Shown here in pieces: positions 36,001-42,000 of a stretch of DNA of 64,000 bases; within the stretch, counting starts at the first letter, position 1; the number at the start of each line of letters is the position of its first letter. The position numbers were made by a program. Source of the stretch: Escherichia coli (lineage in GTDB: Bacteria > Pseudomonadota > Gammaproteobacteria > Enterobacterales > Enterobacteriaceae); the NCBI RefSeq assembly GCF_003018255.1, contig NZ_CP027440.1; one strand, written 5' to 3'.

Positions 36001-39000
36001 CAACAAAATTTCCATGGCCCAGGTGCGCAACGGCAGTTTTATCCGTCAGGCCATTGAGTGCGCGGTGGCGCGTCGGGCGGCGAGCATGATTACCGAAAGC
36101 CAGTGCTACCAACTGGAACAAAATCTTCACCAGCAACGCATTGCCATTGAGCGCAAGCAACTGGATGATTTTTTTGAACTTGATGACAACTTCCATCAAC
36201 TCCTGACCCAGATTGCCGACTGTCAACTGGCGTGGGATACCATTGAGAACCTGAAAGCGACCGTTGATCGCGTGCGCTATATGAGTTTCGACCACGTTTC
36301 TCCACCAGAAATGCTGTTACGCCAGCATCTTGAGATTTTCTCTGCCCTGCAAAAACGTGATGGCGATGCGGTAGAACGTGCAATGACGCAACATTTGCAG
36401 GAAATCAGCGAATCCGTGCGCCAGATCCGCCAGGAAAACAGCGACTGGTTTAGCGAAGAGTAATTCATTTCCTCTCATCCCATCCGGGGTGAGAGTCTAT
36501 TCGCCCCGCCTTATGGCTCATGCATGCATCAAAAAAGATGTGAGCTTGATCAAAAACAAAAAATATTTCACTCGACAGGAGTATTTATATTGCGCCCGTT
36601 ACGTGGGCTTCGACTGTAAATCAGAAAGGAGAAAACACCTATGACGACCTACGATCGTAACCGTAACGCAATCACCACTGGCAGCCGTGTTATGGTTAGC
36701 GGCACCGGTCACACTGGCAAGATCCTGTCGATTGATACTGAAGGTCTGACCGCTGAGCAAATCCGCCGCGGAAAAACCGTAGTTGTTGAAGGTTGTGAAG
36801 AGAAACTGGCACCTCTGGACCTGATTCGTCTCGGCATGAACTAAGCGTGTGAATGCCGCCGATGGCGGCATTGCTTTTTTTACTTCACGGAATATTTCGC
36901 CACGGTCGCTTTCGCACCATGCGCTAATAAAGACAAGTACGCTTCCGTCACTTTTGCAGTAAACAAGCTATTGTCTGGCAAATCATCACCAAAGATCGCC
37001 TTAATCGCCAGCAATGACTGGACGCGCGCTTTCCCTTCGGCACTACTTTGTACAGCCTTCTGAATAACAGGTAACAGTGGGTCACTGATTTCTATCGGAT
37101 TTCCCTGTTCATCAACACCACCGACATAACGCATCCAACCTGCGACGCCCAGCGCCAGCAGATCGAACTTGCTGTCATGCGCCAGATGCCAGCGAACAGA
37201 ATCCAACATCCGCTGTGGCAATTTCTGGCTGCCATCCATCGCAATCTGCCAGGTTCGATGACGTAGCGCCGGGTTGCTATAGCGTTCAATTAATCGGTTA
37301 GCGTAATCTTGCAAATCAACGCCCTGCACTTTCAGCGTCGGCGCTTGTTCCTGCAACATCAAGGCATACGCTGCATGACGATAATGTTCATCTTCCATGC
37401 AGTCATTAATGTGCTGATATCCGGCAAGATAACCCAGATACGCCAGGAATGAATGACTGCCGTTGAGCATGCGCAACTTCATCTCTTCATAAGGCAGCAC
37501 ATCACTAACCAGTTCGGCTCCCGCTTTTTCCCATTCCGGACGTCCGGCAACAAAGTTATCTTCTATTACCCACTGGCGGAAAGGTTCACAGGCAACGCCA
37601 GCAGGATCGCGCACACCGGTAAGTTGTTCGATTTTCGCCAGCGTATCCTCTGTCACTGCGGGCACAATACGGTCCACCATTGTTGATGGGAAAGTCACGT
37701 TTACTTCGATCCATTGTGCCAGTTTTACATCAACAGCTTGCGCGTAGGAAGTGACAACGTCACGCATAACATGACCGTTTTCTGGCATGTTGTCACATGA
37801 CATGACGGTAAATGCGGGAAGTCCTGCCGCTTTACGGCGAGCCAGCGCCTCAACAATCACCCCTGTTGCAGTTTTCGGCTGGTGGGGATTTTGTAAGTCG
37901 GCAACGACCATCGGGTGATCGAGCATTAACTGTCCGGTCGCCGGAGAGTGGAAATACCCTTTTTCGGTGATTGTTAGAGAGACAATCGCGATTTGCGGTT
38001 CACACATCGCAGCCAACACGGTTTCTAAGCCATCAATCTGTACGTGCAAGGCTTTTTTAACGACGCCAACGACGCGAGCCGTCCACGCATCGGCCGACAT
38101 TTCCGCAACGGTATAAAGATTATCTTGCTGTTGTAAATCGGCAATTTGCTGTTCGCCGCCGATTAAATTGACCTCATAATATCCCCAGTCACTGAAATGT
38201 TCCGTAGCAAGAATATCGGCATACACACCCTGATGCGCACGGTGAAATGCACCAAAGCCTAAATGAACAATTCTTGGGGCCAGGTTATTACGATCATAAA
38301 CAGGGAGCGTCGCTTTTGCTGATAACAAATTATTTCCCATAACAATTCCTTAAATATAAATATGGCAAGCTGCATGTTTTGTTATATGAATAAAAATCCC
38401 CTCTCCGGTAAGAGAAGGGATTGAGGATTTAAAGACTTCTGGAAGGTTGCGCAGCTCTGACAACACGCGGTTGATCTTCCGCAGCGTCTTCCAGCGCACT
38501 TAAATCACGGTCTTTCACTTCTGGCATTTTCAGCGCAGAAATTAAACCAATCACTGAATATGCCATGATCATAATGGCGATCGGATACCAGGATTCCGTC
38601 ATGGTGCAGAAAATACCCGCCAGGATAGGACCAAAACCGGAAGCGATAAGACCACCAATTTCTTTAGAAATGGCCATCCGGGTAAAGCGGTTTTTACAGC
38701 CGAACATTTCTGCCATGGTAATGTTTTCCAGAGCAAATAATCCAAGCACCGCACAGTTATGAATCACAATCAGTGCAACCATAATGGTGCTCGGGGCATA
38801 GCTTTTATCTACGATGATAGAAAGCATTGGCCATGCCAGCACAATCGCAGAGGTATTCATAATAATATACGGGATCCGGCGACCAATTTTATCGGATAAC
38901 CAACCAAGGAACGGAATGGTCATAAAGCCGAGAATCGAACTGATCATCAATGCATCTGTTGGAATTGCTTTGTTAAACAATAACGTCTGCACTAAATAGC

Positions 39001-42000
39001 CTGCAAGGAAAGTCTGAATTAAACCTGAGTTACCAGCCTGACCAAAACGCAGCCCTGTTGCCAGCCAGAAGGATTTGCTCTGGAACATGCTACCAGCAGG
39101 TGCAGGTTTTGCTGTCGGTTGGTTGCTGTCGTTAACCTTCTCAAAGACCGGGCTTTCTTTCAGATTCATACGCAACCAGATAGCAAAGACCATCACGACA
39201 ACGCTCGCCAGGAACGGTATACGCCATCCCCACGCCAACAGTTCCTCTTTACTGAGAATGAAGAACATAAAGGCCCAGATTGCCGTTGCGCTCAAGGTTC
39301 CGCAGTTAGTCCCCATAGCAACAAATGAGGAGATAATTCCGCGCTTACCTTTTGGCGCATATTCCGCCAGCATCGTACCGGCACCGGAAATTTCCGCGCC
39401 AGCCCCCAGCCCCTGAATAATACGCAGCGTCACCAGCAAAATTGGCGCAAACACACCAATTTGTGCATAGGTCGGCAGCACACCAATTAAGGTGGTACAG
39501 ATCCCCATCATGGTGATGGTAATAAAGAGCACTTTTTTACGCCCTATTCTGTCGCCCATTTTGCCGAAAATAAATGCTCCGACAATACGTGCCACATAAC
39601 CTGCACCATAGGTTCCCATTGCCAGAATTAACGCCATTGCCGTTGACGATTCAGGAAAAAATATTTCATGAAAAACTAACGCTGCGCCGAGCGAATATAA
39701 CTGGAAATCCATAAATTCAAGCGCAGTGCCCAGCCATCCCGATACTGCTGCTTTCACCAAATCCTTAGTGCTTCTTTCGTGTTTTTCTATTGTCATAATG
39801 GTTATCTCTAAAAAAGAGGTAAGATGCGTACTACTTACTCGCCGTTATTGGTATTATTCAGAAAAAGTGAGTAAGACTTTGCAGCAATGCTTTTGATCCT
39901 GTTCAAATAAACTAATGGCATCAGCAACATGCTGGAAATCAAACGTATGGGTAATTAGTTTTTCTGGTTTAATTAACCCTTTACTTAACCAGTCGATAAC
40001 GACCGGGAATTTATTTGCATTTAAGCGTGAAGAGAAAATAGAGAGTTCTTTTCCGGTAATTCCTTGCTGAATCACTTCAGACGGTTCACTGGAGAATCCC
40101 ATCAATACAATACGTGCCGCTGGAGAAGCCAGCGTTACGGCCTCTTTCAAGATAGAAGGATGACAAGCGGCATCGATAATTAAAGTCGGCTTGATGCCTT
40201 TTTCAGCGAAACTCTCGCCAAGCGGTGTCTGGCTGTTATTAATCGCCCAGTCTGCCCCGCTCTCTTTCGCTTTTTCCAGTCGTTCATCAATGCGATCGGC
40301 AACAATCACATTTTTAACGTTATAGACGCCTTTTAATACCTGAACGATCGTCAGGCCGATTGGACCTGCACCGTAAACCAGAACGGTATCATTTTCAGTC
40401 GGTTGACCATGACCGGTAACGTTAGCCGCAATGGTAAAAGGTTCGATCATCACCGCATATTGATCGGCCACTGCTTCAGGAATTTTCCACGCATTTTTTG
40501 CCGGCACCACGGCATATTCACTGAAACCACCGTCAGCGTGCACACCTAATACAGCCAGTGTCGTACAAACGTTCGGCTTACCTATAGAGCACGGATAGCA
40601 ATGCCCACAGCTGACCACCGGATCGACAGCAACGCGTTCACCGACTCTGGCGCTTTCCACGCCTTCACCCACTGCATCAATGACGCCAAAAAATTCATGT
40701 CCAATGACGCGTGGATATTTCGCAAAAGGATTATGCCCACGATAAATATGGCTATCTGAACCACAAATTCCGGCAAGTTTCACTTTTACTCGTACTTCAC
40801 CCGCTGACGGGGTGGGTATTTCGCGTTCGATAATTGACAGTTGATTCGGTTTTTCAATTAAAATGCTTTTCATTATCTTACTCCTTACCAGTTCCACAGC
40901 GTGCCATCTTCCAGACGTGCGACTGGCAGATAAGCAGGTTCATAGGGATATTTCGCCGCCAGCTTTTCATCGAATTCGATGCCAAGACCCGGTTTGTCTC
41001 CCGGATGCATATAGCCGTTATCGAAAGTCCAGTTGTGCGGGAAGACTTCAAGCATTTGTTCGGAATAACCCATGTACTCCTGGACACCGAAATTGGGGAC
41101 CCACAGATCAAAGTGCAGCGCCGCAGCCATGCAGACTGGTGACAAATCGGAAGGACCGTGTGAGCCAGTACGTACCTGATACAGCGAAGCAAAATCGGCA
41201 ATCCGGCGCATACCGGTAATCCCCCCCGCGTGAGTCAGCGTGGTGCGGATATAGTCGATAAGTTGTTCTTCAATCAGCTGTTTGCAGTCCCAGATGCTGT
41301 TGAAGACTTCACCCACTGCAATTGGCGTGACGGTGTGTTGGCGAATCAGGCGGAAACACTCCTGGTTTTCCGCAGGCGTCGGGTCTTCCATCCAGAACAT
41401 GCGATAATCTTCAATGCTTTTACCAAAGCGCGCCGCTTCAATAGGCGTTAAGCGATGGTGCATGTCATGCAGCAAATGTTCATTAAAACCAAACTTGTTA
41501 CGTACCGCGTCAAACAATTTCGGCATGAAATCGAGGTATTTCTCCGTCGACCACAGCTGCTCTTCCGGCCACTGTCCTTTGGTTGCGGGTTCATAAGCCA
41601 GACCTTTACCTTTCGACATGCCGTAGGTTGTTTTCATACCAGGGATTCCGCACTGCACGCGGATGGCTTTGAATCCCAGCTCCTGATGACGGGCATAATC
41701 ATCCAGAGCTTCATCAATACTGTGACCGGTGGTATGGCAATAAACCATCACCCCTTCACGAGACGCGCCGCCGAGTAACTGGTAAAGCGGCATGTTGGCA
41801 GCTTTGGCTTTAATATCCCACAGCGCCATATCAACCGCTGAAATGGCCGACATCGTAACCGGACCGCGACGCCAGTAAGCACCTTTATAGAAAAACTGCC
41901 AGATATCTTCGATACGGTGCGCATCGCGACCAATAAGCTGCGGACAAAGGTGATCCTGCAAATAAGAGGCCACGGAAAGCTCACGTCCATTGAGGGTGGC

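Follow-up and report, generated by a model that had tools for sequence, protein, structure and literature searches.

In the 64,000-nucleotide stretch of Escherichia coli DNA analysed here (contig NZ_CP027440.1 of assembly GCF_003018255.1; the whole stretch is referred to as the window), the transporter gene ydfJ is intact and lies directly beside rspB, at the position where the K-12 gene is split by the cryptic prophage Qin. The window almost certainly represents the uninterrupted ydfJ allele, with the bacterial attachment site (attB) for Qin-type lambdoid prophages empty, and ydfJ is intact in this strain because the Qin-type prophage that splits the K-12 gene is absent. Nothing contradicts the structural claim of an intact ydfJ and an empty site.

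The ydfJ gene is intact

The ydfJ open reading frame (ORF) encodes 455 aa, as a previous sequence-only reading of the window had proposed, and neither a frameshift nor a stop codon is present in 38429-39796. In a profile search, TIGR00883 (NCBIfam, metabolite/H+ symporter) matches YdfJ with 462.9 bits, compared with a curated cutoff of 443.45, and residues 23-418 of the protein cover profile positions 1-400 of 400. By sequence, YdfJ is a member of the MHS (metabolite/H+ symporter) family of MFS transporters, with a predicted function in transport. The same ORF is named “MHS family MFS transporter YdfJ” by RefSeq in near-identical genomes, and the protein encoded in the window differs by one residue from the YdfJ of strain 980-2. 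An origin of the intact ORF by chance or by faulty annotation was rejected, given the profile match over the full length and the agreement with annotated YdfJ.

The sequence-only reading gave the range 38429-39853; the ORF accounts for this range as far as 39796, and the last 57 bases (39797-39853) are the spacer that leads to the rspB stop codon. Similarly, the description of ydfJ as being followed by rspB is correct with regard to adjacency, although rspB lies upstream of ydfJ in transcription and the order is true only in plus-strand coordinates. The sole other ORF in 38429-39853 is antisense and lies within ydfJ (39075..39416, plus strand, 113 aa, TTG start); it was taken as a chance ORF. 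An Rfam scan in and near 38429-39853 gave no match.

Comparison with the Qin-interrupted gene of K-12

The sequence-only reading had stated that Qin interrupts ydfJ in K-12, and the MG1655 RefSeq record shows exactly this arrangement rather than a second intact gene. The order in the record is ydfJ (b1543, 427 aa, 1631002-1632285), “cryptic prophage Qin” (1632277-1652745), ynfP and rspB. The K-12 prophage is 20.5 kb in length and ends with the intQ pseudogene, and ynfP (b4534) is a stub of 36 aa that lies beside rspB (b1580).

The window is collinear with both flanks of the K-12 prophage. Positions 32636-39719 align with the ydfJ-side flank (1213-8292 of the K-12 region L001) at 97.7% identity, and positions 39701-46958 align with the rspB-side flank (28744-36001 of L001) at 97.9% identity. 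The two flank alignments share 19 bases of the window (39701-39719), and the 20.5 kb that separate them in K-12 are absent. The gene order dcp, ydfG, rspR, ydfZ, ydfI, ydfJ, rspB, rspA, ynfA and onward is alike in the two genomes, whereas K-12 carries the 20.5-kb Qin at ydfJ codons 26-31 and the window carries a single 455-aa ORF.

The same relationship is observed at the protein level. Residues 1-31 of the window YdfJ are identical to residues 1-31 of K-12 YnfP, and residues 29-455 correspond exactly to the whole annotated K-12 YdfJ, the annotated start codon of which is an ATG inside the region shared by the two flanks; therefore, the two K-12 fragments rebuild the window protein exactly. 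In the interval between ydfJ and rspB (39796-39854), only the 57-bp spacer is found, with no prophage or integrase remnant.

The attachment site and its integrase

The site was defined by a base-by-base reading of the junctions of K-12, E308 and O157 493/89. The 16-bp sequence GAAATCCATAAATTCA is common to the window and to the rspB-side junctions of all three genomes, and it occurs once in the window. Its reverse complement reads GAA TTT ATG GAT TTC on the ydfJ coding strand, which encodes E F M D F. The phage-side sequence beside this core is also the same in the three genomes (...CATGACTCTT, or ...TATGACTCTT), whereas the ydfJ-side copy of the core in K-12 carries a 1-base deletion, in which one A is lost.

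The integrase adjoining the occupied sites belongs to one type. The intact integrase of O157 493/89 (426 aa) shares 96.7% identity with the K-12 intQ pseudogene, and a tblastn search with this protein against the whole window (E <= 1e-3) gave no match. The site is the attB of a lambdoid prophage family that shares an IntQ-type integrase, because the occupied genomes have the same breakpoint, the same rspB-side junction and a shared integrase; in the window this attB is empty. Identity to the junctions of the occupied genomes predicts that lambdoid phages targeting ydfJ would find 39704-39719 free for integration.

Site-specific recombination by tyrosine integrases is an established mechanism, and from this mechanism the likely course of integration can be outlined. 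An IntQ-type tyrosine integrase would recombine the phage attachment site (attP) with the 16-bp core in ydfJ codons 26-31, and the crossover between attP and attB would be located within the core. Integration would leave the first 31 codons of ydfJ, together with any promoter upstream of them, cut off from the remainder of the gene. In K-12, the outcome is the 36-aa ynfP stub beside rspB, and the remaining 427 aa are encoded from the ATG of the core onward. A published survey similarly describes Qin as entering the 5' end of ydfJ, with the loss of the promoter and of 28 N-terminal codons (PMC6379469).

Occupied and empty sites among E. coli genomes

A probe of 301 bp with the core at its centre (39560-39860) was searched in 5426 complete E. 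coli genomes. The probe is contiguous in 2008 of these (37%), and most of the others are split at the core; in the occupied genomes listed, the probe matches break at query positions 142-160, which corresponds to the core. Among the empty-site strains, 980-2 (NZ_CP127324.1) and 2016C-3878 (NZ_CP029747.1) resemble the window in having a 455-aa ydfJ directly beside rspB, with 99.3-99.6% identity over 6 kb, and 2016C-3878 is 100% identical to the window across the 301-bp junction probe. Strain 980-2 differs from the window in its ynfG, which is intact, whereas ynfG in the window holds a prophage; at ydfJ, nothing of substance differs.

The occupied sites of O157 493/89, E308 and SE11 (PP_SE11-3) have the same breakpoint and core sequence as the intact site of the window. 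In E308 and O157 493/89, the rspB-side junction is exactly as in K-12, and a tyrosine integrase, an excisionase and an exonuclease adjoin it beside rspB, unlike the window, which has no integrase homologue. In SE11, the element between ydfJ and rspB is a lambda-like prophage of 46.8 kb (PMC2608844). Additionally, the Qin prophages of E. coli W, K-12, B and Crooks have been listed with ydfJ as their insertion site (PMC3032704), and of the 638 Escherichia and Shigella genomes surveyed in a 2019 paper, 48% carry Qin at this locus (PMC6379469). The empty-site count of 37% obtained here refers to a larger and more recent genome set than the 638-strain survey.

The combination of an empty site and an intact ydfJ is already known and represents one of two frequent alternatives in a well-described polymorphism, because Qin occupancy has been published and 37% of the genomes searched have the site empty. 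The finding has little importance beyond annotation, where it records the absence of Qin and a YdfJ of full length in this strain. Together with the element of the Shiga toxin (Stx) phage type in ynfG, it means that the prophage complement is unlike that of K-12, as the sequence-only reading had suggested; this is correct for the window and is a routine strain polymorphism, the rule and not the exception among E. coli strains.

Two observations concern individual occupied genomes. In the O157:H7 strains TT12B, Z1825 and NCCP 15739 (H66-H68), the 301-bp probe matches at one place only, with its ydfJ side; the half nearer to rspB is apparently absent, suggesting that this lineage carries a deletion beside the prophage. 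In E308 (1344-5946 of the region L004), the integrase at the ydfJ site is split by the insertion sequence (IS) ISKox3, and rspB is split by IS1B; these insertions are further decay around the occupied site.

The rspA-rspB-ydfJ-ydfI cluster

The genes rspA, rspB, ydfJ and ydfI are all located on the minus strand, in that order, with spacers of 57 bp between rspB and ydfJ and of 88 bp between ydfJ and ydfI. The coordinates of these genes and of the other features are listed in Table 1. The rspB stop codon is at 39854. The rspA ORF extends to 42132, the annotated start of the 404-aa protein is at about 42099, and the NF043051 and NF011654 matches cover residues 12-415 of the ORF (415 aa).

Table 1. 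Features of the window discussed in the text.
Feature	Position	Strand	Basis
rspA, D-mannonate dehydratase (ManD) family, first gene of the cluster	40885..42099	-	NF043051 and NF011654; annotation
rspB, Zn-dependent oxidoreductase, directly upstream of ydfJ	39854..40876	-	NF007489 equivalog, 694 bits; annotation of near-identical genomes
rspB-ydfJ spacer, 57 bp, holds the ydfJ ribosome-binding region	39797..39853	-	Sequence; promoter and terminator scan
ydfJ, MHS-family MFS metabolite/H+ symporter, intact, 455 aa	38429..39796	-	ORF list; TIGR00883; RefSeq annotation in near-identical genomes
Unoccupied attB core of Qin-type prophages, GAAATCCATAAATTCA, 16 bp, ydfJ codons 26-31	39704..39719		K-12 flank overlap; junction reading
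Hairpin with 12-bp stem and T-rich run, ydfJ-ydfI spacer	38395..38422	-	Terminator scan, consensus match only
ydfI, fructuronate reductase family (mannitol dehydrogenase family), 88 bp downstream of ydfJ	36880..38340	-	NF011611, 650 bits; annotation
Left part of prophage in ynfG, short-tailed Stx-converting type, runs past the window end	~50033..64000		Homology break; phage identity

A promoter and terminator scan of the 57-bp rspB-ydfJ spacer revealed no promoter-like or terminator-like site, and the gene order and spacing suggest that ydfJ is probably co-transcribed with rspAB in the window strain. In the ydfJ-ydfI spacer, the hairpin and T-rich run could be a possible partial terminator within the cluster.

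The gene order and spacing further suggest that YdfJ is probably the uptake component of a sugar-acid cluster with rspAB. The predicted nature of its substrate is drawn solely from its neighbours, that is, rspA of the ManD family, the Zn-dependent oxidoreductase gene rspB and ydfI of the fructuronate reductase family. The full rspA-rspB-ydfJ-ydfI set of empty-site strains may form a working operon for sugar-acid uptake and catabolism with YdfJ as its dedicated transporter, in which case K-12 and the approximately 60% of E. coli that are occupied would be natural transport-deficient mutants; this proposal is put forward tentatively, with the balance tilted somewhat against it. If it is true, the presence or absence of a prophage in ydfJ would amount to a metabolic polymorphism that is phage-imposed, widespread and possibly of consequence for fitness in the gut. 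Independently of this proposal, the rspAB-ydfJ-ydfI cluster would be better studied in a strain like that of the window than in K-12.

Alternative explanations for the intact allele

An empty site may be naive or vacated. The site could once have been occupied and the prophage subsequently lost by precise excision mediated by integrase and excisionase, which would make the strain “cured”. Such an event is mechanistically possible, as O157 493/89 has both an intact integrase and an intact excisionase beside the site, and with approximately 62% of the complete genomes occupied, many lineages may descend from occupied ancestors. However, many of the elements now in place are defective, as shown by the intQ pseudogene of K-12 and the IS-split integrase of E308, which makes excision less likely after decay. 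Precise excision also leaves no scar, such that never-occupied and vacated sites are identical in sequence. A cured strain is therefore considered unlikely, although it retains appreciable weight.

The intact allele may instead have been restored by homologous recombination, in which an imported empty-site segment replaced an occupied allele. Core genes of E. coli recombine often, and the divergence of the two flanks from K-12 is ordinary (97.7% and 97.9% identity) and thus neutral with respect to this explanation; the comparisons made showed no break in identity near the site, beyond which recombination was not sought, and replacement of the allele is regarded as highly improbable. The probability of an assembly artefact, in which a real prophage was collapsed out of the sequence or misplaced, is close to nil. 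No support for such an artefact was found; the ydfJ ORF is seamless, and the junction has the same structure in 2008 independently assembled complete genomes, one of which is 100% identical over the 301 bases.

The preferred explanation remains an uninterrupted ydfJ at an empty attB, and several points weigh against parts of it or of the functional proposal attached to it. The exact limits of the core rest on a slightly decayed copy, because the ydfJ-side core of K-12 has lost 1 base. The hairpin and T-rich run between ydfJ and ydfI may limit read-through into ydfI. Additionally, the sharing of a transcript by ydfJ and rspAB, the YdfJ substrate and the competence of attB for integration are predicted steps.

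The ynfG prophage and the remainder of the window

The only prophage-like DNA of the window had been placed in ynfG, approximately 10 kb away, and this location is confirmed: homology to the uninterrupted ynfG ends at 50032, approximately 10.2 kb from the ydfJ start. The ynfG gene is cut after 84 bases, which are kept at 49949-50032. In matching genomes, a truncated “4Fe-4S binding protein” pseudogene at this place precedes the Ant, Ea22 and LPD38/LPD5 genes, and the prophage of the window holds antirepressor and Ea22-like genes. It is 93.5% identical to Shigella phage POCJ13 over 99% of the query, 93.6% identical to phage 75/02 Stx over 95%, and approximately 91% identical to the Stx1- and Stx2-converting phages of O157:H7. 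In this prophage, regions for toxin, lysis and integrase would be expected past the window end.

The 15-kb stretch with the ynfG prophage (49949-64000) is matched over at least 80% of its length in only 53 of the 5426 genomes, many of which are Shiga toxin-producing E. coli. Within the prophage, 54439..62823 (minus strand) is an intact ORF of 2794 aa, which other genomes label as a (polyvalent) protein with an LPD5 or LPD38 domain; its copy in the closest genome, 2014C-3307, is frameshifted. Just inside the ynfG-side end of the prophage, 50350-50439 (plus strand) matches the Rfam small RNA (sRNA) family sRNA-Xcc1 with 65.4 bits (gathering score 53).

In the other direction, positions 1-25000 are core chromosome, including the lsr operon and uxaB, and are covered to at least 80% in 4154 of the 5426 genomes. 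From 24758 to 50032, the window is collinear with strain 980-2, which has no prophage in the matching stretch, except for a 6.3-kb and a 1.5-kb segment that are present in 980-2 and absent from the window. The places where these segments are missing are 28107-28146 and 30404-30442. The 6.3-kb island of 980-2 lies between marB and eamA and carries 6-phospho-beta-glucosidase, porin, phosphotransferase system (PTS) and GntR genes, and the 1.5-kb segment carries a rhodanese gene and ftrA. At 32633-32636, approximately 477 bp of K-12 (736-1212 of L001, most of ydeJ) are missing from the window, and strain 980-2 has only a pseudogene remnant there. In the ydeE-dgcZ region, 30633-30846 (minus strand) gives a full-length Rfam match to the Hfq-binding sRNA STnc560, with 280 bits.

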